Assembly (NCBI GenBank): GCA_963575745.1
Contig: CAUYUJ010000076.1
Coordinates: forward strand, 1 to 64,000
DNA length: 64,000 nucleotides
Direction of reading: 5' to 3'
Source: Prorocentrum cordatum
Taxonomy: Eukaryota
Under the pieces are notes generated by a model. The model saw nothing but the letters and a program-made list of their open reading frames with translations, was not told where the DNA came from and ran no database searches. Within the stretch, counting starts at the first letter, position 1. Every line of letters starts with the position of its first letter. This document shows positions 25,603 through 62,586 of this stretch, piece by piece. Made by a program: the position numbers and the translations under genes.

Positions 25603-25631
25603 ATGGCGCCGCCGCCGCCCGCGGCCGCCAG
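25603..25631 (+). CDS. mutY: MutY putative exon 1 (MAPPPPAAAR); true start may lie further upstream in the same frame
   Basis: gccATGG context; ends AG|GC; phase matches exon 2; GCCAGG is repeated at both junctions. The frame is open back to about 25447. Confidence 0.5.
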
Positions 25632-28600
25632 GCGGGGCCGCCTGCGATCCGCCTCGGCATCGAGTCGATTCGACGCGCCGGCTGGCCCCGAGATTTTTGA
25701 TTCGATTGGCTCCGATTCGATTCGATTCCGAGTCGATTCCGATCCGATTTCACGATTCGACTGGATCCGATTTTTGATCCGATTCGAATGGATCCGAGTC
25801 GATTCCGATCCGATCCGATTTCACGATTTGATCCGGATCGGGCCTGCCAGGTACCCGTCGCTGTGGGCCTTCCTGTCGCACGCGGACGAGTCGTACCACA
25901 CGGACCTCAGGGGAGGAAGGGGTACCGATCCTGGTACCTTTCTGTCGCTTTCGCCTTTTGGGGCATCCTGGCAGGCCCTCGTCGCCACGGCTGAATTCGC
26001 CTCGACATCCCGGTCAGAACGCACCCTGGGAGAGGTCCGGGGAGTGGTGGTATCGATGTTCTAGATCACCGCCAGGGGCGCCGCGAAAATAATCGCGCTT
26101 CGCGCGTCGCGGCCAGAGCCGCCAAGCTGGCCTTCTCCAGGGCAGCGCGGGGTCGCGAAGACAACCTCGCGTCGCGCATCGCGCCCCGCTGTGCGCGCGG
26201 TTAGGTGACCTAGGTGTTTCTTCGGCAACTACCATTAAGTCGGGCATGTCCCTCCACAGGAACAATATCAAAAAATAGTCAGGGGACGATTTTTCGATTA
26301 TGTTTGGATTTTTATGGGGCATTGCTTGAGCATTTTTTGGTTATCGTCAAACATCCGGCTGTAGGAGGGCATGCCCGACCCAACGCTGGGGCTTGAGGGG
26401 CCATAACGTGATCGTTTTTTATTCATTGTCTTGCCGATCGGCGCGGGCCCTCGAGCCCCCCCCCTCCCCTTGGCTGTTTCTGGCGCCTGCTTCGAGCAGG
26501 CGGGAGTCTCCCCCATGATGCACGCACTGCTCCAAACAGCCGCACCAAGCAGGGGTCCAGAGCCAGACCCCCCCTGGCCCTCCCCTTCCCCCCCTTCCGC
26601 TCAACGTCGAAACGCCCAACATAAAAGAACGTTCACCGCGGCGCACGGCGGCACGCCCAGACCCCCCCGACGCCGTGCTCTTTGCGCACCACCTCGGCCC
26701 CCAGGGGTCTCGACCCTCGGTTTCTCCTCCCGAGTCGTTCGAGGATCCTCAGGACGTGTGTTGGCCCAGTGTGTGCTTCCATCACGGCGGGAGGGCTTTT
26801 TGCTATTTTTGGCCTCTGGACGCCCTTGCCGGGCCCGGGGACCGTGATACAACTTCTCAGGATGAGCAAGCCGTCCCAGGAAATGGGTCGAGACCTTTGG
26901 GGGTCGGCATTCTGATCAAATCTTGACCCCGTTCAACCCAACCAGTCGATCATCACATCGCCTTCGTCGCAGTGAAGGGCCTCAGTTGTCAAACGCACGA
27001 AGGCGCTGACACACGTTCTGAGATCATCGAGTCGTTTTGTTGACGGTCCCGGGGCCCAGGAAGAGCCCCCAGAGGCTGAAACCAGCGACCTCCCCCCCCG
27101 CCGTGATTTTCTGACAGCGCGAGGGGTGCTCTGCGCCCCATGGTTTAGCTCTTCGTAAGCTCTTCTGCGTCCCAGGGCTTGGGGGGGCGCTGACCATGCG
27201 CGACGTTGGAGTCCTCCTGAGTCCTTTCTGGACGCTCCCGGGGCGCGGGAAGGGCCCCCAGGGGCCGAAAATAGCGCCCCCCCCCCGCCGTGATTTTCTC
27301 ACAGCGCGAGGGGGTCTGGGCAGACGGTTCTCCGTCGAGGCCCTCGCCCGCTCCCCCCCCCCCAGGCGCGGGTTGCAAACTGCACCCTCTGCAGACTACA
27401 CCCTCTGGAGAGCCGCCGCGTTCTGCTCCCCCAGCGGGGAGTGAGTGAGGAGGAGGAGGAGGAGGAGGGGGAGGAGGAGGAGGAGGAGGAGGAGGAGGAG
27501 GAGGAGGAGGAGGAGGAGGAGGAGGAGGAGGAGGGAGGAGGAGGAGGAGCAGCAGCAGGACCTGCCGTTTGGCGACGTGCGGGCGGCGCTCCTCACGTGG
27601 TACCGGGTGAGCCGGCGGAGGCTGCCGTGGCGGGGCGACCTTCCTCCGTTGGGTGGGCACATGCGAGCCCTACCCCACCTCCCCAGGATCTCTGCGGGGG
27701 GGAGGTGGGGCTCACTCCGCTCGGGAGATCCCGAACGAAGTGAAGCCCACCTCCCCCCCTAGAGATCCTGGGGAGTTGGGGCGCAGGGCTCGCACGTGCC
27801 CTCCCGCCCGTACACCGGGTCGACCGCGGGCATGGCCAGGGCGGGCGCGGAGGCGAGGGCCCCCGCGCCGCCGCGGGGTGCTGACGCCGGTGGCCGCAGA
27901 AGACAAATCATGGAAGAACCGGCGGCGAAGTCCGAGGCCTGCCTTCGCGGATCCACGATTCGAGCAATGCGATGGGCGGCGGGGGCAACTAGGGCTTGGA
28001 GTTCGTCGAGCGTGTGGCGAGGTCCGAATCCTCTGCCCCCGCCGCCCATCGATTCAAGAGGAGCGATGGTTGGTGTGGGTAGGGTTCGGATGTCGCCACC
28101 TAACACATCTACACTGTCGGTGTTCCGCGCAGATTTCTTGGATCGGCGATGGGACACCTCTCCGTGGCGCGCGGAGCGCGCCAGGGGCGGCGCCAGAGGC
28201 GCCGCCAGGGGGGTCCAGCGCCAGTCGAAGGGATTCGCACGGAGCTCCGAAAGTGTATGTTTATGCCGCTTTTTCATCCTCTAGGTGCGCCGGCCAACCC
28301 CGTGTCTCCTTACGGCGTGTGGGTGTCGGAGGTCATGTGCCAGCAAACGCGCGTGGAGGCAGTCATCCCGTATTGGCTCGCGTGGATGGAGGCGTTCCCC
28401 ACGGTGCAGGCGCTCGCCGAGGCGACCGAGGAGCAGGTCAACGCCAGGTGGGCAGGGCTGGGTTTCTACCGCCGCGCGCGCATGCTCCACAACGGCAGCA
28501 AGCAGGTGCTTTTGGATGCGTCTCCTAGATTCCGCATCGGCGCTGGTATATCTGTGGTCGAAAACAGGGCTAATCCGGCATACTCCAGTTCAATTCCGCT

Positions 28601-29433
28601 TAATTCTGTTCGAACTGGCTTAATCCGGCTTGAGCCTGGGTTTAATCAGAGCTCATCACGGCTCAAAGGCCACAGTAGTCAGGCACGAGCGTTCAGAGGC
28701 CACTCCAGCTGGCGCCTACGGATACGTCTGTGGGCCTCCATGGTGCGACCTCTTGCGTTGTATGTGCTCGAGGTTGCACCTTTGTCATCTGGCGTGATTG
28801 CTCCTTGATCATGGGAACAAGCAGTGACACAAGCAAAAAAAACCGGGAGGTCCGCGCGGATTGCTCGGATCGGCCCTGGACACCCCCTCCCCAGCGCGCG
28901 GGGAGCGCGCCAGGGGCGGCGAGGGAGGCGCCGCTCGGGGGCCCCAGCGCCGATCCGAGAGATCCGCGCGGACCTCCGAGTTTTTATGTTTATGCCACTT
29001 TTTGTTCCCCTACTGTGTCACTGTTTGTTCTCCTGTGGTCGGTCTTAGGGGTCCCTCGTCGCTCCTGCGAAGACCTCCCAAGAGAGCTTTTTCTGCTTGT
29101 GTCACTGGTTTGTTCTCCTGTGGTCGGTCTTGGTGGTCCTTCGTCGCTCCTGCAAGAGGCCTCCCGAGAGAGCTGCCTCCCCTGAAGGTGCTGGGCGAGT
29201 TCCGCGGGGAGCTGCCCCGCACCCTCGAGGAGCTCCGGAGCCTGAGGGGCGTGGGCCCCTACACCGCCGGAGCGCGGGGGGAGCGGCAACCGGCCACGCA
29301 CAGAGGGGGGCGTGGGGGAGGGGGGGGCTTCTTGGGAGCTGTGGGCAAAGAACGCGCAGGCTGTGGAGCAAGAACACACAGTGTGTTCTTCCAACGCGCA
29401 GTGTTTTTTTCCACAGACTGTTTTTGCTTTTGC

Positions 29434-29503
<70 letters not shown>

Positions 29504-32500
29504 TCTTTTGTTTCCACTGTTTTTTGTGTGTTCTTTCCACAGTGTGGTGTTTTTGTTCCACAGACCTCGCTTCTTGGAAGGCGCCAGCCTTGTCTGTAGA
29601 TGTAAAGACAGCGCCTTCTAAGAAGCAGCCTTCTTCTAAGAAGCCTTCCCCCCTCCACTTACCCCCCACTGCGCGCCGCCAAAAACACGACGATCACGAC
29701 CAAAATGCCGCGGGATTTTGGTGACGCCGACCTTGGTCGAAGAAAGAGACAAGGCCATAAACATCAACTTTTGGCGCTCCGCGCAGATTTCTTGGGTCCG
29801 CGCTGGGCCCTGCCAGGCTGCGCCTCGGGCGCCGCCCTGGGCGCGCTCCGCGCGCCAGGGCTGGGGGTCCATCGCGGATTCAAGAAATCCGCGCGGAGCG
29901 CCAAAAGTTTATGTCCATGGCGTGTTTTCTTCTTCTAACCTTGGTCATGGCCCATGCTCGGAGGATGAAAAGGTACCCATACGGCTACCCTTCGCCCGTC
30001 CCGTTTCCCCTTTTTTCGCCCCCCCGGGAGGCCCGCGTCGCCGACGTTGGATTCGCCTCGAAATTCTGGACAGCACGCCCCCCGAGGAGAGGTCCAGGGA
30101 GTATAGCGTGATCGGTACCTTGTGATTTCCCCGCGCGCCGCCGTCGTCGATCCGTGAGGATGGTCGGCGAATTGGCGATGACCAAGGTGGACGATGGCCA
30201 AGCTCCGTCTTGGCTCGGCATCACCCGCGGATGCTTCTACTGTGTGTGTGTGTGTCGCCCCCCTACGGGCGACGCGGGCGCTCAGAGAAGTCTTACAGTA
30301 CCTATTCGGTGGCGGGCGCCTTCTGGCCATACCGCCGGGGCAGCGATACGCTCTAAGATGCTTGTGCTGTATGGTCGATTCGGTGCTCGCACTGTCAATG
30401 CTCTGCTCTCCTATAGGGCTTTGCAGCGTCGTCCGCCCCTTGCTTCTGCATGCCCGAGCCCCGTAGCTGCCTGCACGCCCTCCTGTGTTCAGCTGCCTTC
30501 TTGCTCCTATCGACATTGCGCAGGCCTGACGAAAGCTTGAGAGGTCCCTCCCACTGTGTGCTTGTGCTGTATGTTCGGTTCGGACGTGCGCTTCCAAGGG
30601 GGTCGCCTAGTACTACTACGGTCCCGCTTATGATTAAGAAACCTCCACCCGAAAAGCTGGCCCAGCGTTTCTTAACCAACTTGCCGGAAAACTGGACTTA
30701 AGCGGATAGGTAGCCTTGGATCCAAAATGATGAATAACGTACGTTCCTGGCTCCAAAAGCTGGCCCAGCGTTTCCTGAAGAAACTTCTTAAAAGCTGGCC
30801 CATCCTCCCCCCTCCCTCCCTCCTCCCCCATCCTCCCCCCTCCTCCTCCTCCTCCTCCTCCTCCTCCTCCTCCTCCTCCTCCTCCTCCTCGTAATCACAC
30901 TTTTGACTGTCTGTCCTTCTGCCCTCCCACTGGTCGTGGTCACCGCTTTCTTTCCCCTCCAGGAGCCGTCGCCTCCATCTGCTTCGGGGAGCCGGCGCCC
31001 ATCGTGGACGGCAACGTCCTGCGCGTGCTCGCCCGGCTGTGCGCCGTCGCTGCGCACCCGCAGCAGCCGGCCTTCTGCGCCGAGGGCGGCCGCGGGCGAA
31101 GAGTGCATCCGTATCCCCAGAAGGCCCTCGAGGCACGAGAACTCATGACTAGGGGGCCGCCTGCGAACCCTACCCCTACACCCCACGATTTCTGAGGGGG
31201 AGGGTGGGGTTCACTTCGTTCGGGAGCTCTCGAGCGAAGTGAACCCCACCCTCCCCCTCAGAAGTCGTGGGGGGTAGGGGTAGGGTTCACAGGCGGCCCG
31301 GCCCCCTAATGACGGGCGCTTCTCCGCCAGGTTTCGGCCTCGGGGGGCCCCCGAATTGCGGGGCCTCGGGGCTGTCCACTGGACGGCTCAGGAGGAAGAG
31401 CCGGTCCCTGGGAAGGGGTCGAGACCTCCAGGCGGCGACGCCAAGGAAGAAGGCATGGCGTTGGGGGGATCTGGGTCTGCGGCCTCGCGGGCCAGGGGCC
31501 CCCGGGATCCGCGACCCCGCGGACACGGGGAGTTTTTTTTTCCGCGGAGGCCCCGCGCAGAGCGTCTCCGTGCGACCGCGTATCCGCGGGACCGCGCCTC
31601 AGAATTCAGGCCGCGAGGGCGCGGATACGGTCGAGGCCCATGCCAAGAAACCCCTTGCTTGCCTCCAGTGTGCCCTGGGTTTCTTGGGTTTCGATGGTTT
31701 TGCCATGAAAAGCGTGACGTTCCCACACAATCCATGGACGTCCTGGGGTCTCAGGGTTGGGTTTCTTGTGGAAGGTTTCTTGTGGACTGGCCCTCACTGT
31801 ACGGATGTGATCGCCGCTCGCGAGGCAGGTTGGCGTGGCAGCTGGCCGAGAAGCTCGTCAAGGCCTGCGATCGCCGGCGAACCCTGCGGCCAGGAACTCT
31901 GGCTTGGCGTGTCGCGGAGCCAGTTTTTTCGGGTAGCACTTCGTGGAAGCCTTTGCGTATCACCGATTTTTTTTTTTTCGAGTACACTATGGTGCGCTAG
32001 CGTCTGGCAGTCGATGAGGGAGCGCCAGTTTGGCGTCATTGGCGCCGGTTCGCGTCGATTCGCGTCGGTTAGCGTCGATTCGCAAGAGCCAGCAAGATGG
32101 CACGGGAGGCTCCCGTGAGTTGTCACCGAAGATTCTGGCCCACCACGTTTTGGCGCGACACGCTATCCACGTCCCCATTGCCAGGCGTCAGCGTCCCGAG
32201 CCTTTCCCCGCCTCCCGCCCCGCGGAGCGGAGCGACACGCTATCCGCTCGCAGGGCACAGCGTGTCGCCGGGGCCGCCGCCGCGGCACGCTCAGCAAGAG
32301 TTCCCGACCGTACCCCTCCTCGGAGGCGTGCCCGTGGGGGAAGGCGCAAAGGGGCGGGCCTTCTCAGAAGGCGCGGATATTTCTTCCGGCCTTCTGAGCA
32401 TTTCTCTCGGAGCCTTCTCCGAAGCCAGATGGGGGCTTCCGAGAAGCTCCGCCGCCTTTGAGAAGGCCTGCCCCCTCTGCCTTCCACCCCTAGGCGCACC

Positions 32501-35500
32501 GCCGACCTCGGTGGTCCAGTCGACGCCGGGGCATCGGAGACCCCCGCTGCGTTCCCAGACCCTCTCGCGACGCGACAAAAAATCAAGACACGGGAGGCTT
32601 TCCGCTACAGTGGAGACCCATGCCAAAAAACACCATGCTTTCCTCCAGGGTGCCCTGGGTTTCCTGGGTTTCGGTGGTTTTGCCATGCAAGGCGCGACGT
32701 CCCCACCAAAAATCCAGGGACGTCCGGGGGTCTCAGGGTTGGGTTTCTTGTTGAAGGTTTCTTGTGGTCGGGCCCCCACTGCAGGTTCGGCCTCTGGGGG
32801 CCCTTACCGGCCGGGCCTCTGGACCGTCGAAGAAAGCGGCCAGGGAGGAAGAGCGGGTCCCAGGGCCAGCGGCACCGTAACGGGTACCCATCGGTCGTTG
32901 AAAGTAGGTATGTTTGGATTCCCAGATTTCAATCTATTTTGAGCGCCTTCCTAATTCAATGCTCGAGTGGCTTCACCTTTCCCGTCCTCCTCAGGGGGCG
33001 GACGGAACCCAATCTGCTTTCAACCCATCCCTACTTCATGTTTCGACCTGCTTCTTCCGACCGACAGGTGCTCCTTAACGGGTGCTTTCTGGAGATTCGC
33101 CGGAAGTTGCCACTTGAGGGCCTCTCTCTGGCACTGCAGCGTTTGCCCACATCGGGGAGGGTGGGGTTCGCCGGGTCACTGGCCAACGTGCCCGTTCGCG
33201 GAGTCCCCGTGAGAGGGGCGCGGGCAGGGAAGGGGTCCATACCTCGGGGGGGCCACGCCGTGCAGGAACAAAAACACCACGTCGAGGATCCGGGGCGCTC
33301 GCCCGGCTGCAGCCATCACCCTCACGCGCGGAGCCCCAGCCGGCCTCTCAGAAGCCCGACTCGCAGGGTGTGCAGTCAGCCCGCATAGCAAGGATGGGCA
33401 ACCTTCCCAAGGGCACCCTTGCATCCTCGTCCCCTCGGTCCATCCTTGGCTGGAGGGTTTCTCCGAAGGGCTTAGGCGACTCCTCCCCCTCCTCCTCCTC
33501 CTCCTCCTCTGCCTACTCCTCCTCCTCTTTCTCTTTCTCCTCCTCCTCCTCCTCCTCCTCCCCCTCCTCCTCCTCCTCCTCCTCCTCCTCCTCCTCCTCC
33601 TCCGCCTGCTCCTCCTCCTCCTAGGGGTCGCCTACGGCCACGGGCGAAACACCAGGCACCTCGCCCCCTCGGTCCACCCTTGGCCGCCTCCGTGGGCCGC
33701 GCCCCGCCCGCAGAGCCTCGGAGTGGGCGCCCAGGGCCCTTGCGCCCTCCCCTCGCGCAGCCCTCTGCTGCGGGCCGGCGGCAGGGCTTCTGCCCCAGAC
33801 CCCGACGTCGTGCCTTCTGACCGGCGTGCAGCCCCGAAGAGGTCTTTCCGGGGGGGGAAAGAAACAAACACACAGACACAACCGATCTCGTCGACTCCCA
33901 GGACCATATGTGAGAAGATATGGGAACGGGGGGAAAGACGAACGCCCAGAACACCTGGGAAAATATGGGGCATCCTGTTGTTTGTGTCTGTTTGTTTGTG
34001 TGTCCGAGGGCCCTTCCGTCTTGACCGCTTCCGTTCGGGGACTCCGCTTTCCACCCCGAGCCCCGGGGGCCGGCGGCTCCTCTTCCCGGGGGCCGCTTCC
34101 TGGGGACCGGCTTCCTTTCGTGTGCGGGCAATCTTTATACCCAGATCCAGTGCGTCTTGGACTTTCTTGGGGGGGGCACCGCAAGGCCGAGGCGCGTTGG
34201 ATATGGGCAACAATCTGGCCTCTACAAGGTTAAGTCGGGCCTGTTCCTCTACAGGAGGAACATTCAAAAATAGAAAAATAGTCTGTGGACGATCCTTTGA
34301 CAATTTCCGAATATTTTTTTGAATATTTCGTCCAAACTATGCCTGTATGGGGGACACGCCCGACCCAACTATAGGAGCCAGATTCTTATCCATGTCCAGT
34401 GCGTCTCGCGGTTCTGGGGAAGGGGGCCCGAAGCTCCCAGCTGCGGTGGATACGGACACAAGCCTTGCCCGCATCCTGGTCCTGGGGCCCGGTGAGGGCC
34501 CTCAGAGGCCGCGAACGGCCGAGCACGCTCCGTCATGCCTCTCTCGTGACCCACTGGGGCCGGGGGTTCGCGGGTGGCTGCCGACGAGGCGGACGGCGGC
34601 GCCCACGCGGGGGAGCTGAACCAGGCGATCATGGAGCTGGGCGCGACGCTGTGCGCGCCGAGCGGCACCGGGGCGGACCCGCGCGACCCCCTGGGGCCGT
34701 TCTACAAGTCCACCAAGCCAGGGGCGGCGAGAGGGGGGGGGGGATAGCAGGGGAAGCAAGAATGACATAAACATCAAAGCTCGGAGGTCCGCGCGGACGT
34801 CCGAGTTTTTCTGTTCATGCCATTCTTCGCTCTCCTAGATAGGCTCAGGGGGAGACCCGGAGGCCCTGGCGTCGCAATTTTCCAGGACGGGCGATTTTTG
34901 CTGGTTTCAGGCCCCAGGACCGTCACGGATGGGCGCGGCTCGAAAAATGCGGAAGAAATATCCATCTCCTTGCGGCAAGTCCCGACATTGTGCCAGCCCA
35001 GCATTGTGGGTGGTGACAATTCGAGGGGACACAGGAGGCCGTCACGTGTGGCACCTCGTGTCTCCAGGCTTGGGAGAGCCGTGATGAGTATGATGATGAT
35101 TCTCTCATGGCCTTCGGCCCATCCCGCTACCGTGCCTGGGTTGTGGGTCAGAGTTCTCAGGGGTGCTTCTTCGGGTCTTTTCGGAGCGTCCTCGGGGGCC
35201 TCTTGGGAGCCTTTTGGGGGCCTCCTGGGGGCCTCTTGGGGGCCTCTTGGGGCCTCCTGGGGGCCTCTTTGGTCTCTTGGGCGCCTCTTTGGGCCCTCTT
35301 GAGGCCTCCTGGGGGCCCCTCGGGGCCGAGGGCTCGAAATGTCCGTTCGGGTTCTGGGCCTCTTCTTGGGCCGTCTTGGGCGCCTCTTGGGCCGTCTTGG
35401 GGCACTCTTCGGGGCCTCTGGGGCCGCCTCGTGGGCCGTCTTGGAGCGTCGGGACGCCGTGGAGGCGGGGTCGCCCCAATCCTGCAGAAACCAAAACTGG

Positions 35501-36595: not shown

Positions 36596-36649
<54 letters not shown>

Positions 36650-37003
36650 GGCTGCTGATGATGACGCTGACGCTGATGCAGATTCTGTTGCTGCTGCTGA
36701 TGATGGCGATGCTGATTATACTGATGATGGTGATGATGCTGCTGCTGATGATGCTGCTGATGATGATGGTGATGTTGCCGATGCTGATGATGCTGAAGAT
36801 GATGGTGATGGTGATGCTGATGGTGATGAGCATTATGCTGATGCTGATGATGATGATGATTCTTATGCTGATGCTGATTATACTAATGATGATGCTGTTG
36901 CTGCTTATGATGCTGATGCTGATGCTGATGATGATGATGATGATGATGCTGCTGCTGATGCTGATGCTGACGCTGCTGCTGATGCTGATGATGATGACGA
37001 CGG

Positions 37004-37059
<56 letters not shown>

Positions 37060-37282
37060 GTGATAATGACGATGACTTTGATGCTGATGATGCTGCTGAT
37101 GATGATTATTATGATGACGATGCTGATGCTGATGCTGATGCTGCCGATGATGAGGATGATGATGATGCTGCTGATGATGATGACGATGCTGATGTTAATG
37201 ATGATGCTTATGACGACGATGATAACTGTGGTGGTGGTGATGGTGTTTATGGTGGTGGTGATGGATATGATGATGCTGATGC

Positions 37283-37320
<38 letters not shown>

Positions 37321-37471
37321 CTACTGATGATGATGAAGAGGATGGGGATGGGGATTATGATTAGGATGAGGATGCTAATGCTGATGCTGATCATGCTGAT
37401 GTTCATGATGCTGATGGCGATGCTGCTGCTGAGGGTGATGCTGTTGATGCTGCTGATGATGATGCTGCCGG

Positions 37472-37557: not shown

Positions 37558-37558
37558 C

Positions 37559-52600: not shown

Positions 52601-55600
52601 ACAACCAGGGGGGGTAGGGAAGGCGGGGGCGGTAACAGTCTCGTTTCGATTCCTCCGGCTCGATTCGCTTCGACTTGGATCGATTGCGATTCCGATTCGG
52701 TTCGACTTCGGACTCCGATTTGGATTTCGTCTTCTCAATGGAGGCCTTGCTAGCCTTCCGATTCCCGCCGATTCGATTTCTCCCGACTTGGCTGCCGATT
52801 TCCGCTGAACCGACTCATCTGGATCGCCGATGGGAACAATCGATCTGATTCTGAGGGCTTTCTGGGGGGTTTGTAAGGGGGGGGGAGGGGGTGGTAGGGA
52901 ATCCAGACTTGCTCGCCAGGCCGTCGGGACAGAAGTCACGAGTGCCCGGCGAGCAAGTCTGGACTGGCGAACGCCTCCCGTCGCGACAAAAGTCACGACT
53001 ACTTTTGGCCGTTTCCGGCCTCCCTGGGGGCCCTCGCAGGCCCCGGGACCGTCCGACAAAAGAGCCAAGAATGAGAAACCGGCCCCGGGGAAGAGATCGG
53101 GACTTCCAGGGGCCGCGTGCTGAACACATCAGGGCATCGTCGGACGGGGCTCGGACGAGGATCAGTCCGCTCCAGAAGGCCGCGGCGCCCGATACATCCT
53201 CCAGAGCCAGCGGATCTCAGAGATTCTCGACGTATCCTCGCCCGATGCTGCCCTCGTCGTGGCTGCGTCTTGGCCACCGCACGGTCTGGGAGAGACGGGG
53301 CCGCCACTGGGCGCACCGCCCGCTGCATGCCCGAGCCCGCTCCTCCTCCTCCTCCTCCTCCTCGCGCCTCCTCCTCCTCCTCCCCCTCGCCCCTCCTCCT
53401 CCTCCTCCTCCTCCTCCTCCTCCTCCTCCTCCTCCTCGCGCCTCCTCCTCCTCCTCCTCCTCCTCCTCCTCCTCCTCCTCCTCCTCCTCCTCCTCCTCCT
53501 CGTCGCGCCCCCCACAGCCCGAGGTGCTGTTTTGACGCTCGGAGGGCACTGCAGCCGCTCCCTGCCCTCTCGCCGCTCCCGCCGCCCCTCTGCCCAGAGG
53601 GGGAACAAAAGGTACCCGTACCTCTACCCTTCGCCGCTCGCCCTTCGCCGCCCCTCCGCTCAGAGGAGGAAAAGGTACCCATACCTCCGCCCCCTCCTCC
53701 TCCTCCTCCTCCTCCTCCTCCTCCTCCTCCTCCTCCTCCTCCTCCTCCTCCTCCTGCTCTCCCCAGATTTCCCACCAGATCTTCTTCCAGATCTTCCCCC
53801 GTTTCCCCCTTTTTGGGCCTCCTGGGGGGACCTCGTCGCCACTGCCGGATTCGCCTCGAAGTCCTGGTCAGAACGCGCCCCGGGAGAGGTCCGGGGGGCA
53901 GCGGTGTCGGTACCTTTTGGTCTCCCTGCCTCTGTCCTGTGTCTCACCAGTGCAGCAGTGCGGTCGGGCCGAGGTACGAGATCGAGGTCGGTTTGGGGAG
54001 GGTGCCCTGATGTTCTTCGTGCTTGTTGGGTGTTCTTTGTGCATTTTGGGGGGAGGGTCGGTGCCCTTGGACGTTCTGTGTGCTTGGGCCAGCGGAGGAT
54101 CTCTCATGTTCTTGAGGAAGGCTCTTCTGTTTTTGGATCGGCTGTACGCGCCGGTCGTTGGAAGCAGGTATCTTGGGGTCCCCAGATCCCAATGTATCTC
54201 AAGCGCCTTCCTACTTTAATGATCGATATGTGCATGCTGTTTTTTGTTATTCTGCGGGCGGGCCCGAACCCAATCTACTCTACCCGCCTTCCTACAGTAT
54301 ATGTCTATGCATGTCTGCATGTCTGTCTGTCTGTCTGTATGTATGCATGTGTATGCATGTATGTATTTATGCATGTATATATGCGTGCATGCATGCATGT
54401 TTGTATGTTTGTATGTTCACATGTTTGTATGTTTGTATGCTTGTATGTAGTTATGCATGTATGTATGCATGCATACATGTATGCATTTATGTATGTATGT
54501 ACGTACGTACGTACGTATGTATGAATGTATGTATGTATGTATGTATGTATGTATGCATGTATATATATATATACGTAGGTATGCATGCATGCATGCATGC
54601 ATGCATGCATGCATGCATGTATGTATGTGTGTATGTATGTATGTAAGTGTGCATGCTTGTATGTATGTATGCATGCATGCATGCACACATGCGTGCTTGT
54701 ATGCAGGTGTGCATGCGTGCATGCATGCACTTATGTATGCATGCATGTATGACTGCATGTATGTATGTATGTATGTATGTATGTATGTATGTATGTATGT
54801 ATGTATGTATGTATGTATGTGTGTATGCATGTATGTGTATACATATATGAATGTATGTATGTATGTATGCATGTATGTATGTATGCATGTATGTCAGTAC
54901 TTATGTGTGTATGCATGTATGCATGCATGCATGCCTGCATGTGCGCATGCATGTATGCATGTATGCATGCATGCATGCATGCATGGATGTATTGATTTAT
55001 GTATGTATGCATGTATGTATGCATGCATGCATGCATGTATGCATGCATGTATGTATGAACGCATGCATGGATGTATGTAGGTATATATGTATGCATGTAT
55101 GCACACACACATATATACATATATATATATATGTATGCACGCATTCATGCATGCATGCATATATGTATGTGTATATCTATACATGTATATATATATACAG
55201 ACACGTGTATATTTATATAGGTATGTATGCATGTATGTATGCATGCATGCCTGTCCTGTTAGTCCTGGTCGCAACTTGGGCCCGAGGCGCCGCCGATACA
55301 AATGGGGGGGGGCGGAATCTGCTCCCGCAGCTAGTCTCGGCCCCGCCGCTCGGCCCTCGGCTCCACTCGCTGGCGATCCCGGGCGCCGGGAAGATCATCC
55401 GGGCGACATCCGCTGACATCGACGGCGCAGTGCAGTCGTGGCATGGTGCCGGCGGTGTCCCGTATCGGACTGGGTGGTTCAGCACGTGTGCCGAAGTCGA
55501 CGCTCGGGTGCTCCCGTCGCAGAGGTCCCGACCCCTTTCCTGGGGCCAGCTTCTCGTCCCACGGATCCATTTGTTGCAGTGGCCCCCGTGGGCCTGACAG

Positions 55601-55878
55601 CGGCCCCTGAGGTCGAAATGGAAGAACAAGCGCCCGGATTGAGCGAAGCATGTCGTCGGCGATCTAGGTGGCTACCTCGTCCTCCTCCTCCTCCTCTTCC
55701 CCTCCTCCCCCTCCTCCTCCTCCTCCTCCTCCTCCTCCTCCTCCTCCTCCTCCTCCTCCTCCTCCTCCTCCTCCTCCTCCTCCTCCTCCTCCTCCCTCCT
55801 CTCCTCCTCCTCCTCCCCCCTGTTCTTTCTCCTCCTCCCCCTTCCCCTCCTCCACCTCCTCCTCCTCCTCCTCCTCCT

Positions 55879-55909
<31 letters not shown>

Positions 55910-57302
55910 TGTTCTTCCTCCTCCTCCCCCCTCCCCCCTCTTCTCCTCCTCCTCCCCTCCTCCTCCTCCTCCTCCTCCTCCTCCTCCTCCTCCTCCTCCT
56001 CCTCCTCCTCCTCCTCCTCCCCCCACGTTTTGCTATTGTCGCAGGCCTCCCAGGTCGGAGTAGATGGGGTCGGAGAGGATCGCGCCGCATCGCCAGTGCA
56101 TCGGCGATGCGGCTCGATGTGGAGCCAGATTTTTTCCACGCCGACGTCGCCACTGCAGCGCCGACGTCGCCGATGCATCGCCGATGCATGGCCTCCAACC
56201 CAGACCCCCGACGTGTTGATTTTTTCACAACGTCGACCCCCAGAGTTCTCGACCCCTTCCACGAGACCGGTTTTTCATCCTCAGTCGTTTTTTGACGGCC
56301 CCGGGGCCAGGTCAGGGCCCCCCCCGGAGGCCGAGTTAGTAGCGAAACCCTCCTCACGTCGTGTTTTTTTCCCAGCGCGAGGGGCCCTGGGACCCCCATC
56401 CACGCTGGCCCCTGTGCGGCTTCCGCTCTCCCCCTCCTCTCGTGCGACCCCCCCCGCGAGGACCCGGGCCCCGAGGCCCGGGGCGCCGCGGCGAGTGCGC
56501 TGCTGCGCGAGCTGGGCGCGGAGGAGGGCCTCTCCGGCCGGGAGTCGCTGCCAGGTGCGGGCAGGAGTCGTTTCCATATGCGTTGCGTCTTGGAGTTCCA
56601 GGCTCTCCTTCTCCAGGAGCCAGAGGCGCAGTGGGTATGGATAAAAACGTCGGGCCCATAGAGGCTAGATTTTCATGCATATTTATATCCACTGCGCCTC
56701 GGCCTTTTGGCACCCCTTCCCAGAAGCTCCAAGACGCAGCGGATATGGATATAAATCTTGCCCGCACCAGGGCCCCTGGAGCACGTCTTCTCGCACGTGC
56801 GGCGCTCGGAGGAGGAAAAGGTACCCATACCGCTACCCATGGCCCCGTTTTCGCCTCCTCGGGCGCCCTCGTCGCCTCTGCCGGATTTTTGCCTCGAGAT
56901 CCTGGCCCGAGCGCAGCCCGGGAGAGGTCCAGGGAGTGGCGGTATCGGTACCTTCCTGCGGGCCTACAGGCACATCATCCCCCGGAGGTTCCCAGGGGGG
57001 TCCTCTTGCCGAAGAAGAACACGCGGCCTGAGCATAAACTTTAAGAGGTTCCCAGGGGGGGTCCTCTTGCGGAAGAAGACCACGCGGCCTAAGCATCAAT
57101 TTTACGAGGGCCGCGCGGTTTTCTTTGATCTGCGCCGGGCCCCCTCTGGCGGCGCCTCCGGCGCCGCCCCTCGGCGCCCAGCGCCGATCCAGGACATCCG
57201 CGCGGACCTAAGTTTGTGTATTTTTTTGTTTGATTGGTGTATATATATATATATATGGTGTGTATATATATTTATATATATATGGTATACATATATATAT
57301 AT

Positions 57303-57382
<80 letters not shown>

Positions 57383-60300
57383 GTTGTCCTGAGGTGCTCC
57401 CCCCAGTTTGTCGCGCCCCAGTTTTTGGGGCCTCTCGGGCCCTCCAGGGCCTCGTGCGGAGCGCTCCGCGAGGCCAGCCGGGTGCAGAGACCGCAGGAAG
57501 CGGCTCGGGGGCTTCTCTCGGAGTCCTCACCCCAGAGAGCCTGAGGCCCGACGGCGCGGCGTGCGTGGCCGCCTCAAGATCAGAGGTGACTCGGCGAGCT
57601 TCGTTGCCCAGCGGAGCGACGGACGGGAACGGGGCGAGACCGGGGCCGCCTTCGCCGACACTGGCGCGCAAGCTGCCCGCGCAGGGACGCGCGCAGGCGC
57701 CTTCGCTTTCCGCACGAGGCGTGCCACGGCGGCGGCCCGCATGAGTTGACGCGTCAGGTCGCTATGCTGAAGTCGGGCATGCCCCTCTACAGGGGGAATC
57801 TTCAAAAATGATAAAAAAAATTATCCCAGTGCGACCCTACCTAGGAGTTGGAGCCCCTAGGAAAGCAGCATTAGTAGTAACAGTAAAGCTAAGCTACAGC
57901 TAAGCTAAAGCTAAGCTAAAGCTGAGCTAAAGCCAAGCTAAATATAAACTAAAGCTAAGCTGAAGCTAAGCTGAAGCTAAGCTAAAACCAAGTCTTAGCA
58001 AACGCTAAGCTAAAGCTAAGGCAAAGCCAAGGTAAAGCTAAGCTAAAGCTAAGCTAAAGCTAAGCTAAAGCTAAGCTAAAGCTAAGCTAAAGCTAAGCTA
58101 AAGCTAAGACACATCTAAGCTAAATATAAGCTAAAGCTAAGCTGAAGCTAAGCTGAAGCTAAGCTACAGCTAAGCGAAAACTAACCTAACGCTAAACTAA
58201 AGCTAAGCTAAAACTAAGCTAAAGCTAAGCTAAAGCTAAGCTGAAGCTAAGCTGAAGCTAAGCTAAAGCTGAGCTAAAGTTCAGCTAAAGCTAAGCTAAA
58301 ACTAAGCTGAAGCTAAACTAAAGCTGAGCTAAAGTTCAGCTAAAACTAAGCTAACACTAATGTACAGCTAAGGTAAAGCAAAGCTGAAGCTAAGCTAAAG
58401 CTAAGCTAAATCTAAGGTAAAGTTAAGCTACAGCTAAACCAAAGCTAAGCTAAAGCTAAGCTAGAACTAAATTAAAGCTAAGCTGAATTTAAGCTGAAGC
58501 TAAAGCGAAGCTAAAGCTAAGCTGAAGCTAAGCTAAAGCTAAGCTAAAGCTAAGCTAAAGCTAAGCTAAAGCTAAGCTAAAGCTAAGCTAAAACTAAAGC
58601 TACAGCTTGAACGCCCAGGGGACTGGGGGAACCGCGGGGCGAGGACTGGGGGAACCGCCGGGGCGGTGTGCACTGCCCGGCCCTTTAAGCTAAGAGAGTA
58701 AGAACCCTTCTAGGCAGAGCCTAGGTAGGGAATAACCAGGGGACGATTTTTTGATTGTCCATTTAAAGGTGTGGGCATTTTTCCCGGAAGGGGCTTAAGC
58801 CCAGGGTTCTCTTTTAGCCGTTTACCCCCGGAATCGACGGGAAGAGGGCCGGCGGCATTATTCTGCGATAAATTACGTGCGGGAAGAGGGCCGGCGGAAT
58901 TATTTTTGAGGATGTCTCGAGCGAAACGCTTGTTTTTCAGAAATTGTTGAGGATGTCTCGAGCGAAACGCTGGTTTTGCAGAGTTGGGGATGTCTCGAGC
59001 GAAACGTTGTTTTCAGAATTTGTTGAGGATGTCTCGAGCGAAAACGCTGGTTTTGCAGAGTCGACCGCGACACGGAAAAGCGCCCCGCGTAGGAATTCCG
59101 AGGATGTCTCGCGCGTGCCGCGTCCCGCGCGCAGGAATTTCGAGGATGTCTCGACTAATTCGTTTGTTTTTCGATGATTTCCTTGGCCAGACAGGTGGGT
59201 ATCTAACATGTTCTGCCCGAGCTGTCACCACGTCGCTTCACGTGTCCAGGGCACCCAGGTGGGTATCTAATATGATGGTCCCGAGCTGGAGCCACGTGTT
59301 TTCACGTGTACAGGCCACCCAGGTGGGTATCTAACATGTTGGTCCCGAGCTGCAACCACGTGCTTCACCTGTCGAGGCCACCCAGGGGGTGTCTAAGATG
59401 GTGGTCCCGAGCTGGAACCACGCGTTTTCACGTGCCCAGGTCGCCCAGAGGGTGTATCTAACATGGTGGCCCCGCGCTGAAACCGCGTGTTTTCATGTGT
59501 CCACGCCACCCAGGGGGGTATCTAACATGGTGGTCCTGAGCTGGAACCACGTGCCCAAGCTACCCATGAGGTATCTAACATGGCGGTCCCGAGCTGGAAC
59601 CACGTGTTTTCACGTGTCCAGGCCACCCAGGGGGTATCTAACATGGTGGTCCCGCGCTGGAACCACGTGTTTTCACGTGTGCAGGCCACCCAGGTGAGTA
59701 TCTACATGGTGGTCCCGAGCTGGAACCGCGTGTTTTCACGTGTCCACACCACCCAGGGGGTATTTAACATGGTGGTCCCGAGCTGGAGCCACGTGTTTTC
59801 ACCTGTCCAGGCCACCCAGGGGGTATCTAACATGGGCCCCCTGGATCCTTCCTGGGACTCGGAAGGGAACGTCGAGAGTTTATTTGTATTTGGTATCGAT
59901 TCGTTTACTTTTTGGCCTCCGGGCGCCTCTGGGCGTTCCTGGGCCCTCCTGTGCTCCAGACGACCGCATCTTAGATATCCCCCCTGGGTGGGCTGGATCA
60001 CGTGTTTTTACGTGTGCAGGCCACCCAGGGGGGTATCTAACATGGTGGTCCCGAGCTGGAACCATATGTTTTTACGTGTCCAGGCCACCCAGGGGGATAT
60101 CTAACATGGTTGTCCCGAGCTTGAATCACGTGTTTTTGCGTATCCAGGCCACCCAGAGGGGGTATCTAACATGATTGTTCTGAGCAATGGCCATGTGTTG
60201 TAACGAGTCCAGGCTATTCAGGGGTGTATATAGCATGGTTTCCCGAGCTGGCACCATGTGTTTTTATGTGTCTAGGCCATCCAGGGGATATCTAACATGG

Positions 60301-62586
60301 TTGCTCCGAGCAAGGACCATGCATTTTAAGGTTCCGTAGCGCGTCCCCTCGGCACGTTCCGCGGTGCGTCCCCGTGGCACGTCCCCTGGCACGTCGCCTG
60401 GCGCGTCCCTTAGGACGTTCCGCGGCGCGTCCTCCTGGCATGCTCCCCTGTCAATTAGCTTTGGGGCAGCTACTATGTGCTCAGGCAGCTCGAGCTTAAG
60501 ATCCAGATCAGTTCGGTCAGGACTCGGATGCAAAGGAGGACTCGATCCACAACACTATAGAGCACAATCAGGGCATGGCACATGGCAGTTTAGCACAGCG
60601 CAGCACAGCACAGCCCTCGGCCCGGTACATCAAGATCGATACACTCAGCATTGCAACCGTGCACGTTCCGTGGCGCGTCCCGTGGCGAGTCCCCCTGGCA
60701 CGTCGCGCGGCGCGTCCCCTGGCACGTCCCGTGGCACGTCCATTGGCACGTTCCGTAGAGCGTCCCCTTGGCACGTCCCGCGATGCGTCCCCGTGGTACG
60801 TCCCCTGGCACGTCGCCTGGCGCGTCCCTTAGGACGTTCTGCGGCGCGTCCTCCTGGCATGTTCCCCTGTCAGTTAGCTTTAGTGCAGCTACTATGTGCT
60901 CAGGCAGCTCGAGCTTAAGATCCAGATCAGTTCGGTCAGGACTCGGATGCAAAGGAGGACTCGATCCACAACGCTATAGAGCACAATCGTGGCATGGCAC
61001 ATCGCAATTCAGCACAGCGCTGCACAGCACAGCCCTCTGCACGGTACATCAAGATCGATATACTAAGCATTGCATTTGCCCGTCGCCCAGTCAGGTGTCT
61101 TTGAAACGTTGCCATGTCTTACATTTCTATACTCCTTTCCGGGTTCGTGGGTTGATCATGTTGCGTGACCCACGACCCCCCCGGAATTCAGACAACACGA
61201 TTCGGGGACGCTAACCAGGACGCTTTTCGGCTCCCCCCCTCGCGTGTTCAGCAACAATTTAAGTAAGGAAGGAGAAAGCAGGATTGTAACGGTGGAAATT
61301 GGAAACTGCAACTGGTACAGGGAGCTGCAAGCTTAATCTTCGCAGCCTGATGACCCCGCAAGGGGGCTGGCGGATCTCATTGCTTGTGTTCCCCTGTATA
61401 TGATGCGCGTGGAGGGCAACGCCCCCCATTGGAGCCCCTGCGGGGGTGGCCAGGGCCGCCCCCAGTGTGTGCCCTCGATGTGGTCGTGGTCGCCTGCTGT
61501 CCCCCGCACGTCTGGGGGTCGCCCCCAGGCCAGGGCCGCCCCCTCTGGGCACACCTCCGGACCCCGGGGCGCATCCCGAGGGCGGCACTGCTTAGCAACG
61601 ACGAAGCTCGAACCTCGAAGTTCGAACCTCGAGTGGAGGGGAACGCTCCCCGTTGGGAGCCCTTCGGGCGTGGGACGGCCGGGGCCGTCCCCCCCCCCCC
61701 CCCCCCGGGCACACCTCCGGGCCCCCGTGCACGTGGAGCGGGCGCTGGTCCCCGAGGGCGCGGCCCTGGCGGCGAGCGGCGCGGGGGCGGAGTTCCGCCG
61801 CGGGGAGCGGCGGCTCTGCTGGATGTCAGGGCATCGTTGTAGACGACCCCTATCAGCCCGGGACCCCCTCGCGATGCGGAAAGATCGCGACGGGAGGTTT
61901 TTCACTACTTTCGGCTTCCGGGGGGCCCTTGCCGGGCCCTGGGACCGCCAAAAAACGACTCAGGATGAAAAAGCGGTCCCGTGGAAGGGGTCGAGGCCTT
62001 TGGGGGTCACTATCGTTTCGCCGACCCCTACAGTCGAAACGGTACCCAGCGATCCGACGCTCCAAAAAAAATTGGAGCGGGCGGTTCTTGGCCGTTTTCG
62101 GCCTCTGGGGGCCCTCGCCGGGCCTCGGGAGCGTCAAAGAATTATTCAGGACGAAAAGCCAGCCTTGGGAAGATGTCCGGACCTCTGGGGCCTACGCATC
62201 GAAAAATCGGAGCAGCCGGATGTCTGGGTTGTCAGGGTGGGCAATTTTCCCAAGGGTACCCTTGCATCCTTGCCTCCTCGGTCCATCTTTGACCACTTTC
62301 GATGGCGCTTCAACACGGGCGTTCAAGGGACTTGCATGCTTATCGCGCATCCTTACTATAAGTATTGACTGCGTCCCTATCCCGTTCCCATCCAGACCTC
62401 CACCATCTCATCCCCCCAGTTGCGGATATGCCCCTCGAAGCCCGAAGGAACGGACAACATCCCCATCCAGGGGGGTACATCGGCCAGTGGGGCCCAGGCC
62501 GTGCCGTCAGGGGTAGGGGTCGGATAAGCGATGCTCAGGATGGGCGTGGGCCACATGGCCGACGTGGGCGTGACTGCCGCCGTCAG
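25603..62586 (+). CDS. mutY: A/G-specific adenine DNA glycosylase (MutY/MUTYH), at least 18 exons; 3' end probably outside the window
   Basis: Hand-joined exons give MutY motifs in the correct order: SYH..[31 protein letters not shown] (catalytic Glu), [11 protein letters not shown], HhH LRGVGPYTAGAVASI, VDGNVLRVLARL (catalytic Asp), GELNQAIMELGATLC, LPLPPPRKARREE, NUDIX-like GLLAGQWEFP, HVFSHVR (8-oxoG recognition loop), WMGVGHMADVGVTAAVR. Phases are compatible across GT/GC/GA-AG introns at most junctions. Confidence 0.93.
25851..25902 (+). CDS. mutY: MutY exon 2 (YPSLWAFLSHADESYHT)
   Basis: cag| acceptor and GA donor; the SYH motif precedes the LLxWY helix as in eukaryotic MUTYH. Confidence 0.7.
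27559..27648 (+). CDS. mutY: MutY exon 3 ([30 protein letters not shown])
   Basis: LLxWY...RxLPWR N-terminal MutY signature. Confidence 0.9.
27650..27806. mobile_element. Palindromic MITE inserted in MutY coding sequence; related copy at about 31150-31310
   Basis: Near-perfect hairpin GGGCACATGCGAGCCCT...AGGGCTCGCACGTGCCC; CCGT direct repeat at 27646-27649 and 27808-27811. Confidence 0.85.
27811..27877 (+). CDS. mutY: MutY exon 4 (YTGSTAGMARAGAEARAPAPPR); boundaries uncertain
   Basis: In frame with exon 3 once the palindromic insert is removed; phase-1 GT donor at 27878 (alternative at 27890) fits exon 5. Confidence 0.55.
28285..28505 (+). CDS. mutY: MutY exon 5 ([73 protein letters not shown])
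   Basis: Strong MutY catalytic-domain match; tag| acceptor and GT donor. Confidence 0.96.
29188..29269 (+). CDS. mutY: MutY exon 6 (VLGEFRGELPRTLEELRSLRGVGPYTA), helix-hairpin-helix
   Basis: HhH motif LxGVGxYTA; aag| acceptor and GA donor. Confidence 0.93.
30963..31085 (+). CDS. mutY: MutY exon 7 (GAVASICFGEPAPIVDGNVLRVLARLCAVAAHPQQPAFCAE)
   Basis: VDGNVxRV catalytic Asp motif; cag| acceptor and GC donor. Confidence 0.94.
31825..31862 (+). CDS. mutY: MutY exon 8 (GRLAWQLAEKLVK)
   Basis: Matches the W-x-L-A-x-x-L-V helix; gag| acceptor and GC donor; phases fit. Confidence 0.82.
34589..34717 (+). CDS. mutY: MutY exon 9 (ADGGAHAGELNQAIMELGATLCAPSGTGADPRDPLGPFYKSTK)
   Basis: G-x-x-NQAxMELGATxC motif; may extend to 34723 to use a GC donor. 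Confidence 0.92.
35855..38740. repeat. 2.9-kb (GAT/GCT)n cryptic trinucleotide repeat with a higher-order duplication of about 0.9 kb
   Basis: Distinctive variants recur about 0.9 kb apart (e.g. AAGAGGATGGGGATGGGGATTATGATTAGG at about 36427 and 37336). Confidence 0.92.
39360..39655. repeat. About 62-bp minisatellite (GGGAAGTGCACCATCCTCGAGTGGGCACGC...)
   Basis: About 5 tandem units. Confidence 0.8.
39930..40325. repeat. 9-bp repeats (GGGTTCCTC)n followed by (GCCGAGCGA/T)n
   Basis: Directly visible. Confidence 0.9.
41527..41614 (+). CDS. mutY: MutY exon 10, interdomain connector (IGADALQARRDGALEALLGAAGHGVFSCP); 3' boundary uncertain (41590 or 41614)
   Basis: cag| acceptor, GC3-rich coding-like segment, and position between exons 9 and 11. 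Confidence 0.6.
41665..41832. mobile_element. Dispersed repeat J; copies at 42225-42387 and 45672-45841
   Basis: GGTGGACAGGCCTCC...GGAGGTTTGTCCACC inverted ends; colinear copies. Confidence 0.8.
42643..43602 (+). mobile_element. Satellite-containing non-autonomous element (family B), copy 1
   Basis: Subterminal inverted repeat CCCTACCTAGG/CCTAGGTAGGG; conserved head of about 120 bp; internal (TTAGC)n-(ATAGC)n-(ATATC)n-(GATGTA)n. Confidence 0.82.
44306..44476. mobile_element. Near-perfect 171-bp palindrome flanked by TTAA
   Basis: ttaa-CGGGCGAAGAACGGTATAA...TTATACCGTTCTTCGCCCG-ttaa; arms pair to the centre. Confidence 0.88.
44550..44605 (+). CDS. mutY: MutY exon 11 (ACAAGAGAYLEGLRAAGTE)
   Basis: Pyrimidine tract plus cag| acceptor; GA donor; CCGAGGAG repeated at the junction with exon 12. 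Confidence 0.6.
45444..45509 (+). CDS. mutY: MutY exon 12 (EAAAAQAHLLLPLPPPRKARRE)
   Basis: Corresponds to the (F/L)P-x-x-x-x-K-x-x-REE linker; GA donor. Confidence 0.75.
46340..46530. mobile_element. Foldback family E (TTTTGGCGCTCCGCGCAGATTTCTTGG...CCAAGAAATCCGCGCGGAGCGCCAAAA and GGAGGTCCGCGCGGA variants); copies at about 14720-14840, 15880-16000, 17700-17770, 28115-28280, 28830-29000, 29745-29935 and 34765-34830
   Basis: Long terminal inverted repeats visible in each copy. Confidence 0.8.
46989..47039 (+). CDS. mutY: MutY exon 13 (ERLVVLALRREPVPGEQ)
   Basis: First beta strand of the C-terminal domain; completes REE; GC donor. Confidence 0.7.
49736..49840 (+). CDS. mutY: MutY exon 14 (GPAWLLWRRAGAGLLAGQWEFPCALVAQHLGAPPE)
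   Basis: LL-x-x-R-x-x-x-GLLAGxWEFP NUDIX-like motif. Confidence 0.92.
50250..50960. repeat. Tandem duplication of about 380 bp containing CTCCCGCTGCAGCGCTGG subrepeats
   Basis: 50260-50640 is colinear with 50645-50960. Confidence 0.75.
52130..52365. mobile_element. Palindromic element (GATGGGGTCGGAGTAGATGGG...CCCATCTACTCCGACCCCATC); partial copy at 56050-56210
   Basis: Long inverted repeats with CATCGCCGATGCATC internal repeats. Confidence 0.8.
53655..53918. mobile_element. Dispersed family F (AAAAGGTACC...GGATTCGCCTCGAAATCCTGG...CGGGAGAGGTCC...GGTACC); copies at about 18490-18645, 25907-26060, 29957-30120, 46540-46662, 47315-47400 and 56805-56955
   Basis: Repeated colinear sequence with inverted AGGTACC/GGTACCT ends. 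Confidence 0.8.
54300..55250. repeat. (ATGT)n/(ATGC)n alternating purine-pyrimidine microsatellite
   Basis: Directly visible. Confidence 0.95.
56461..56554 (+). CDS. mutY: MutY exon 15 (DPGPEARGAAASALLRELGAEEGLSGRESLP)
   Basis: gag| acceptor and GT donor; phases fit exons 14 and 16; ALLxEL helix. Confidence 0.78.
56771..56801 (+). CDS. mutY: MutY exon 16 (GPLEHVFSHVR)
   Basis: HxFSH 8-oxoG recognition loop; cag| acceptor and GC donor. Confidence 0.88.
57819..58732 (-). mobile_element. Family B copy 2, inverted, nested in a family A MITE
   Basis: Same ends as 42643-43602; internal 11-bp (AAAGCTAAGCT)n array; splits the family A core. Confidence 0.82.
58905..59155. repeat. About 40-bp minisatellite GAGGATGTCTCGAGCGAAACG...
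   Basis: About 6 units. Confidence 0.8.
59195..60325. repeat. About 59-bp tandem satellite (GTATCTAACATGGTGGTCCCGAGCTGGAACCACGTGTTTTCACGTGTCCAGGCCACCCAGGG)
   Basis: More than 15 units, interrupted at about 59835-59995. Confidence 0.92.
60375..61075. repeat. Near-identical direct duplication with about 420-bp period
   Basis: 60375-60655 matches 60795-61075. Confidence 0.9.
61727..61821 (+). CDS. mutY: MutY exon 17 (VHVERALVPEGAALAASGAGAEFRRGERRLCW); 5' boundary unresolved
   Basis: Coding-like segment; the GA donor inside the Trp codon joins exon 18 in phase. Confidence 0.68.
62539..62586 (+). CDS. mutY: MutY exon 18 (MGVGHMADVGVTAAVR)
   Basis: Aligns to the C-terminal W-x5-(F/M)-x-x-x-x-V-(S/T)-x-A-x-K helix of MUTYH; cag| acceptor and GA donor. 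Confidence 0.78.

Follow-up and report, generated by a model that had tools for sequence, protein, structure and literature searches.

In Prorocentrum cordatum, most introns of the gene for MutY, an A/G-specific adenine DNA glycosylase, begin and end in short direct repeats, and the question raised by the locus is what these repeats are. A sequence-only reading had listed them at 12 of the 17 introns and offered two origins: mass intron gain by insertions that generate target-site duplications (TSDs), or selection for junction complementarity in splicing. The window analysed here is the whole 64,000-nucleotide stretch of genomic DNA in which the gene lies (G+C 59.6%). The gene runs from an ATG at 25603 to 62586 on the forward strand, with 18 exons and 17 introns within the window, and its 3′ end lies past the window edge. 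All introns described below are on that strand, and their numbering (I1-I17) is that of the sequence-only reading.

Assignment to MutY was based on an HhH-GPD glycosylase domain and a C-terminal NUDIX-like domain, taken from the precomputed Pfam annotation (PF00730, PF00633, PF14815) of the public gene model P0032, a 482-aa 'unnamed protein product [Prorocentrum cordatum]'. Exon 28302-28511 (+), used as a query, returned MutY/adenine-glycosylase proteins, P0032 at 100% identity among them. Among the matches listed for this exon, the nearest relatives were haptophyte-type proteins (Emiliania, Chrysochromulina; 83-87% identity), followed by diatoms, with no further dinoflagellate; the gene may be of algal origin. 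Exons were located by tblastn with seven homologues together with an HMM of 30 homologues, and every junction region was then read. The resulting homology-guided model, 490 aa long within the window, reached 636 bits with the family HMM; a single alignment of 470 aa showed 58.1% identity to P0006. A 29-nt piece of exon, sought as an exact pattern in metagenome contigs, gave no matches. Protein searches aimed at transcript-derived P. cordatum peptides returned P0032 alone for a query across exon 41491-41613 and no match among 40 candidates for one across exon 27529-27648.

The public model differs from this gene structure. P0032 was placed on the window (28335-62587) in 14 exact blocks; it starts at an internal Met at 28335, lacks the four 5′ exons and twice leaves the conserved frame, in exons 30963-34717 and 44550-45509. 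The frame is lost because GC or GT donors were taken where homology calls for GA; GC/GT donors are used by P0032 at I6, I11, I12, I14 and I17. Its score against the family HMM was 266 bits and its identity to P0006 40.7%. Repeats at its 13 junctions measured 7, 2, 3, 4, 0, 0, 1, 1, 3, 2, 5, 2 and 1 nt.

For a given mRNA, the length of a boundary repeat is independent of where within it the boundary is placed. Every in-frame, stop-free donor/acceptor pair of each intron was therefore scored by HMM, first without a splice-site rule and then with GT/GC/GA..AG only. The HMM score alone was rejected as a junction picker, as it produced many ties in the unconserved linkers at I2, I4, I11, I13 and I15. 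All 12 listed repeat strings were present at junctions derived independently from protein homology. For seven of the 12, the mRNA of the sequence-only reading was top or tied top by homology alone. These were I3 (27650..27811; flanks CCGT, 4 bp, extending to 5 bp if one mismatch is allowed), I5 (28506..29187; GT..AG, AGGTGCT, 7 nt), which gives the same mRNA in P0032, I6 (29270..30962; GA..AG, GGAGC, 5 nt), I8 (31863..34588; GC..AG, AGGC, 4 nt), I12 (45510..46988; GA..AG, GAGGA, 5 nt), I14 (49841..56460; GA..AG, CGAGGA, 6 nt) and I17 (61822..62538; GA..AG, GGATG, 5 nt). The chosen junction stood 8.4 bits above the next candidate at I6, 8 bits at I12 and 3.1 bits at I14, and at I17 it stood 4.2 bits above the GT..AG pair of P0032. 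At I6, P0032 has a different junction, and the conserved frame is lost there.

The claim that most introns (12 of 17) carry such repeats held for these seven homology-fixed junctions and for I15 (56555..56770; GT..AG, CCAGG, 5 nt), whose junction is backed by element structure and by P0032. It held less well for the other four, I1, I2, I4 and I11, which hang on the choices of the sequence-only reading. I1 (25632..25850; GC..AG, GCCAGG, 6 nt) is a candidate intron, open in frame, in the unconserved N-terminus, where homology does not fix the junction. For I2, I4, I11 and I15, other canonical pairs score equally or higher with shorter repeats. At I2 (25903..27558; GA..AG, GGACCT, 6 nt), an acceptor 3 nt upstream, which leaves a repeat of 1 nt, has a score 2.6 bits higher; at I11 (44606..45443; GA..AG, CCGAGGAG, 8 nt), an alternative acceptor at 45429 leaves a 5-nt repeat with a better HMM score; and at I4 (27878..28284; GT..AG, GGTGC, 5 nt), homology does not fix the donor. 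Immediately before the exon-3 acceptor there is a long (GAG)n tract (27445-27555).

Shorter repeats were found at I7 (31086..31824; GC..AG, GGC, 3 nt) and I13 (47040..49735; GC..AG, AGG, 3 nt). All 13 introns with a GH..AG register (H being A, C or T) thus carry repeats, of 3-8 nt in the mRNA that homology predicts. GG is present in every one of the 13 and AGG in eight; the CCGT of I3 is without GG. In 10 of the 13 the next exon opens with the same two bases as the donor, compared with a frequency of 0.276 in mismatched pairs (P = 3 × 10−4). This agrees with the proposal that intron starts copy the next exon, and that the GA and GC donors are explained in this way. The donors of I12 and I14 (45502-45515 and 49833-49846) share ten identical bases, CGAG|GATCGG, which may reflect the same target site, the same element end or mere coincidence.

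The repeats were longer than expected by chance. When the HMM-best canonical pair was taken for each intron, blind to repeats, the mean length was 3.06 nt (16 introns), compared with 1.16 nt for 613 decoys, the decoys being the remaining canonical pairs that stay in frame; in 100,000 permutations 3.06 nt was never reached. At motif-matched junctions (G|GH..AG|G), nine introns averaged 4.33 nt and 111 decoys 2.53 nt (P = 2.6 × 10−4). The 13 true donor/acceptor pairs averaged 5.23 nt, compared with 3.51 nt for 156 mismatched pairs (P = 1.25 × 10−4), and for the five most robust introns the same comparison gave P = 0.007. Since mismatched pairs already reach 3.51 nt, about 3.5 nt of the repeat length can be put down to a shared motif, leaving an intron-specific excess of about 1.7 nt. 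Roughly two thirds of the repeat length is a motif common to all sites (..AG|G, and CGAG|GA in I11, I12 and I14), so that an insertion history is not required for the greater part of it. The repeats are real and above chance, though partly inflated by the motif and by boundary choice.

It could then be argued that most of the introns have no insertion history at all, and that the repeats follow from the dinoflagellate splice consensus (..AG|G at both exon ends), the codon and composition bias of a GC-rich gene, GAG|GA contexts and boundary choice. The level reached by mismatched pairs, 34 of the 156 with repeats of at least 5 nt, is what such an explanation would lead one to expect, as are the CGAG|GA context common to I11, I12 and I14 and the ten identical nt of I12 and I14. 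With HMM-best picks only, the repeats of I2, I4 and I15 drop to 1-2 nt, and the sequence-only reading itself admitted that some boundaries had been chosen by their repeats. Homology-best junctions nonetheless still exceeded the motif-matched decoys, and true pairs exceeded mismatched ones even among the five most robust introns. Two further observations, described below, would be left unexplained: the excess of inverted repeats at the ends of introns, and the structures of I3 and I15. We regard this explanation as somewhat unlikely.

The ends of the introns were examined for inverted repeats by comparing the first 40 nt of each intron with the reverse complement of its last 40 nt, the ends of other introns serving as mismatched pairs. 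End-to-end scores of at least 19 were obtained for nine of the 17 introns and for 13 of 272 mismatched pairs (4.8%; binomial P = 2 × 10−8). Without I3 and I15 the mean score was 17.3, compared with 12.6 for mismatched pairs, and none of 100,000 permutations reached 17.3; a reversed, uncomplemented control gave 11.5, under the mismatched mean of 12.6. Perfect inverted repeats of at least 8 nt were present near both ends of eight of the 17 introns and in 23 of the 272 mismatched pairs. Inverted repeats located near intron ends include the subterminal ones of I8 (31874-31891 and 34558-34574), a 30-nt inverted repeat of I10 (41617-41646/44517-44545; 24 of 30 columns match), a 14-nt inverted repeat 5 nt inside each end of I12, and a 22-nt inverted repeat of I17 (61831-61852 and 62514-62534). 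The inverted repeats of I9, I13 and I14 are partly low-complexity. In introns other than I3 and I15, the boundary repeats sit 3-14 nt from the inverted repeats.

Two introns are palindromic elements over their whole length. The 162 nt of I3 form one long near-perfect hairpin of MITE-like appearance, with inverted arms at 27651-27703 and 27752-27805 and CCGT on either side; with its flanks the predicted fold has an energy of −149.4 kcal/mol (z = −13.65), and none of 200 shuffled sequences was as stable. In a second copy of this element, at 31162..31291 (−) inside I7 and with about 79-81% identity, the terminal inverted repeats are perfect over 10 nt, and the copy has a separate 5-bp duplication, GTCAT. 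I15 is predicted to form a 216-nt hairpin (−130 kcal/mol, z = −9.36) and has a perfect 9-nt terminal inverted repeat (56555-56563/56759-56767) and a 3-bp CAG duplication (56552-56554 and 56768-56770). Partial copies of I15 were found in I8 (34122-34204 and 34377-34473). Homology to the copy at 34122-34204 stops exactly at the terminal inverted repeat, with CAG on both sides. From its inverted-repeat ends, this homology limit and the flanking CAG, it follows that I15 consists of an element plus one copy of a 3-bp duplication, the GT of its splice sites being supplied by the element and the AG by the duplication. Neither I3 nor I15 has space in it for a pre-existing intron. Within the 64-kb window there was one further I3 element and there were three partial I15 matches, all in other introns. 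I1 was considered as a further hairpin element and rejected, its fold having a z of only −2.7.

In the long introns, no single element could be recognised from end to end, and the inverted repeats were short and often 3-14 nt subterminal. Self-blastn of the region identified at least four families of interspersed repeats of 90-190 nt, in the introns and in the upstream region, some of them palindromic. The members of one family lie at 18512-18657, 25954-26055, 30000-30132, 46572-46676, 47273-47419, 53793-53926 and 56843-56954, those of a second at 23187-23349, 24555-24731, 31626-31799 and 32606-32781, and those of a third at 41662-41833, 42223-42387 and 45671-45841. A further family, palindromic, lies at 28124-28274, 28851-29003, 29756-29933 and 46360-46535, and its first member forms the 3′ part of I4 and reaches the acceptor. 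It was rejected as the creator of I4, as the element is confined to the 3′ half of that intron. I9 contains a tandem array of about 3 kb (35830-39000), which is G-rich, with a GC skew of up to 0.54 and units of 9, 12 and 15 nt. The youngest-looking dispersed repeat of the window is 131 nt long, with 91.6% identity between its copies at 45528-45658, at the start of I12, and at 19548-19678, about 26 kb upstream and outside MutY.

Taken as a whole, we favour the reading, with a probability of roughly 0.6, that the repeats are the identical repeated intron boundaries of dinoflagellates, composed of a splice motif and a remainder that most likely represents TSD remnants of small DNA transposons. 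Small non-autonomous elements (introner-like elements, MITEs) would land in exons and generate target-site duplications. One copy of the duplication, together with an element end, would supply the splice sites, and the duplicated bases would appear once in the mRNA. Where the 5′ site came from the duplication, the intron would start with the bases of the next exon, G followed by A, C or T, giving GA, GC and GT donors. The long introns would have begun as insertions and later been swollen by other repeats, and all modelled junctions would be used in RNA. In MutY itself we observed the repeats with their excess, the inverted-repeat ends, two hairpin-element introns with duplications, and further copies of the elements. 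The insertion reading proposed from the sequence is thus borne out directly for I3 and I15 and indirectly for others, through the inverted-repeat ends (9 of 17 introns) and the donors that copy the next exon (10 of 13); for the long introns an insertion history is putative. At least two introns are correctly explained in this way, and for others the explanation is plausible.

Both the observation and its interpretation as TSDs are already in print for dinoflagellates, and the feature is a real but known one. An 'identical repeated intron boundary' (IRIB) was described by Mendez et al. 2015 (J Eukaryot Microbiol 62:679, PMC5032977) as 2-9 (2-11) identical bp at both boundaries that occur once in the mRNA, leaving the exact boundary ambiguous. 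In that description the repeat always contains GG, often AGG, with a remainder unique to each intron, and is treated as part of the splice-site consensus. The MutY introns conform to it, with 3-8 nt repeats in all 13 GH..AG introns and GG in all 13; the 4-nt repeat of I3 is without GG. The IRIBs were verified by cDNA at 100% identity, in Crypthecodinium and a few others (PMC5032977), whereas the P. cordatum MutY mRNA is predicted from homology.

Introner-like elements of dinoflagellates are the subject of a preprint by Roy and colleagues, a version of which reportedly appeared in Curr Biol in 2023. In the preprint (Roy et al., bioRxiv 10.1101/2020.10.14.339549), the elements of Symbiodiniaceae and Polarella are reported to have terminal inverted repeats and 3-8 bp TSDs, with splice sites provided by the duplication or by an element end. 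Duplications of the GHNN type give introns that start like the next exon and occur beside an NAG type; GA is enriched in young introns, and a GH is conserved after the acceptor (10.1101/2020.10.14.339549). I15, with its AG from a 3-bp duplication and its GT from the element, fits one of the classes described by Roy et al. The likeness is one of structure, and there are differences from the elements of that report: most MutY introns are long and composite, and I3 is without GH..AG.

For P. cordatum itself, Dougan 2023 (Genome Biol 24:265, PMC10666404) reports a G+C of 59.7%, donors that are 24.7% GT, 51.4% GC and 23.8% GA, and AGG acceptors in 79.7%. Introner elements were found there in 2.4% of the introns, by the criteria of inverted repeats of 8-20 nt and direct repeats of 3-5 nt at most 30 nt from the intron ends (PMC10666404). 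The eight of 17 MutY introns with a perfect inverted repeat of at least 8 nt are far above this 2.4%, a comparison in which windows and criteria differ. The gene models of Dougan 2023 allow GT, GC or GA donors only, and the 5′ exons of MutY are missing from them. The main text of Gozashti et al. 2025 does not contain the word 'Prorocentrum'.

A different explanation is that both kinds of repeat, direct and inverted, are maintained by selection as an aid to the spliceosome in pairing the ends of long introns with a weak donor signal (G followed by A, C or T). The folds of I3 and I15 illustrate how inverted repeats would draw the two splice sites close to each other, and the literature gives the idea some footing, with a splicing role for hairpins proposed in Farhat et al. 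2021 (BMC Biol 19:1, PMC7789003) and the repeat treated as splice-site consensus in Mendez et al. 2015 (PMC5032977). The direct repeats, however, are not mutually complementary, and their sequence varies from intron to intron. Moreover, element copies that have duplications of their own occur within introns at a distance from any splice site, as expected of transposons. We consider such selection quite improbable, and the 'junction complementarity' put forward by the sequence-only reading found no support in any part of the analysis. That the P0032 junctions are the true ones and the GA-donor junctions artefacts of forced homology is highly improbable: P0032 does use GC/GT..AG pairs only, with repeats of at least 4 nt at just three of its 13 introns, but it leaves a frame conserved in all homologues in two segments, falls far below the homology model in both HMM score and identity to P0006, and would avoid GA in a species for which 23.8% GA donors are reported (Dougan 2023, PMC10666404).

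Orthologous loci bear on the insertion reading from another side. Of 68 related metagenome loci that were fetched, none exceeded 87% identity, and none is therefore P. cordatum; 19 were examined. The closest full-length loci (L001-L006, L008 and L009) code for the protein without interruption. One or two gaps in the match were seen in L011 and L066, about three in L012 and L013, and four introns in L041, L048 and L053. None of the orthologue loci examined had an intron at the position of I3 or I15. I5, the intron with the longest canonical repeat, shares its position and phase (28505|29188, ..KQ|V.., at the Q/V boundary) with the intron at 518-680 of L041, a GC-rich, haptophyte-like locus. This points to I5 being old, or to its having been gained in parallel at a CAG|GT site, and counts against the insertion reading. 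Mass intron gain, as originally proposed, was not demonstrated: the close orthologues are intronless or have one to four introns, but the I5 position is shared. The orthologue organisms are apparently not dinoflagellates, and the loci therefore have only weak bearing on the timing of intron gain.

Four introns, I3, I9 (34718..41526), I10 (41615..44549) and I16 (56821..61738), the last three with candidate boundaries, have no fitting canonical register. For I3, none of the five registers is GH..AG. Its homology-best mRNA scored 56.3 bits and the best canonical in-frame alternative (27636/27787, GA..AG) 40.9 bits, which is 15.4 lower; the alternative swaps four residues at conserved positions for eight residues read from the element. 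Judged from the sequence, I3 must be removed exactly at its duplication if the conserved frame is to be kept. It may also be an unspliced recent insertion, and not an intron.

At I9 and I10 the canonical pairs narrowly miss the frame. The GC..AG pair of P0032 at I9 (34716/41527) falls short of the conserved frame by 1 nt, and the GC..AG pair at I10 (41613/44550) does likewise. The in-frame registers (34716-34718/41526-41527 and 41613-41615/44549-44550) are GC..CA or CC..AG, and the best canonical in-frame pairs score 7.3 (I9) and 7.7 (I10) bits lower. Skipping or reframing exon 41527-41614 to rescue GC..AG was tried by hand and rejected, as the downstream exon stayed out of frame. At I16, the GT..AG pair of P0032, with a 2-nt repeat, leaves out in-frame, coding-like sequence (..VHVE..) upstream of its acceptor, in which one of the conserved strands of the C-terminal domain can be recognised. 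There is no AG for about 80 nt upstream of this stretch, and the homology-best junctions lead by 9-11 bits. Upstream of exon 17 there is a run of about 19 C (at about 61683-61706), which could be an error-prone spot of the assembly.

The four cases may reflect cryptic canonical splicing with small changes to the protein, one-base assembly errors, a recent disabling insertion (I3) or non-canonical splicing. That P. cordatum removes some introns without GT/GC/GA..AG, namely I3 at its duplication and I9, I10 and I16 at junctions that are one nucleotide off or lack an AG, seems unlikely to us. Exact excision of I3 at its duplication, if real, would resemble the non-conventional introns of Amoebophrya or euglenids. 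The Amoebophrya introns described by Farhat et al. 2021 (PMC7789003) are hairpins without GT-AG, validated by RNA-seq, with inverted repeats and 3-5 nt direct repeats that overlap the exon borders. I3 resembles them in that its hairpin joins both exon borders and none of its registers is canonical; its splicing is putative. In the literature searched, this was the sole paper found on non-canonical hairpin introns in dinoflagellates, which is no proof of their absence elsewhere. Amoebophrya is a basal parasitic lineage and P. cordatum a core dinoflagellate.

For annotation, the use of boundary repeats together with homology gave a far better protein than the public model (636 vs 266 bits). The result adds one well-dissected gene to a known picture, that of boundary repeats in dinoflagellates and of many introns derived from small transposons. 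Only the candidate non-canonical introns would merit testing at the bench. If they are true introns, they would be invisible to the published annotation, which is restricted to GH..AG. If RNA were to confirm I3, I9, I10 and I16, hairpin-guided or other non-canonical splicing would extend from the basal parasite Amoebophrya to the core, bloom-forming dinoflagellates.
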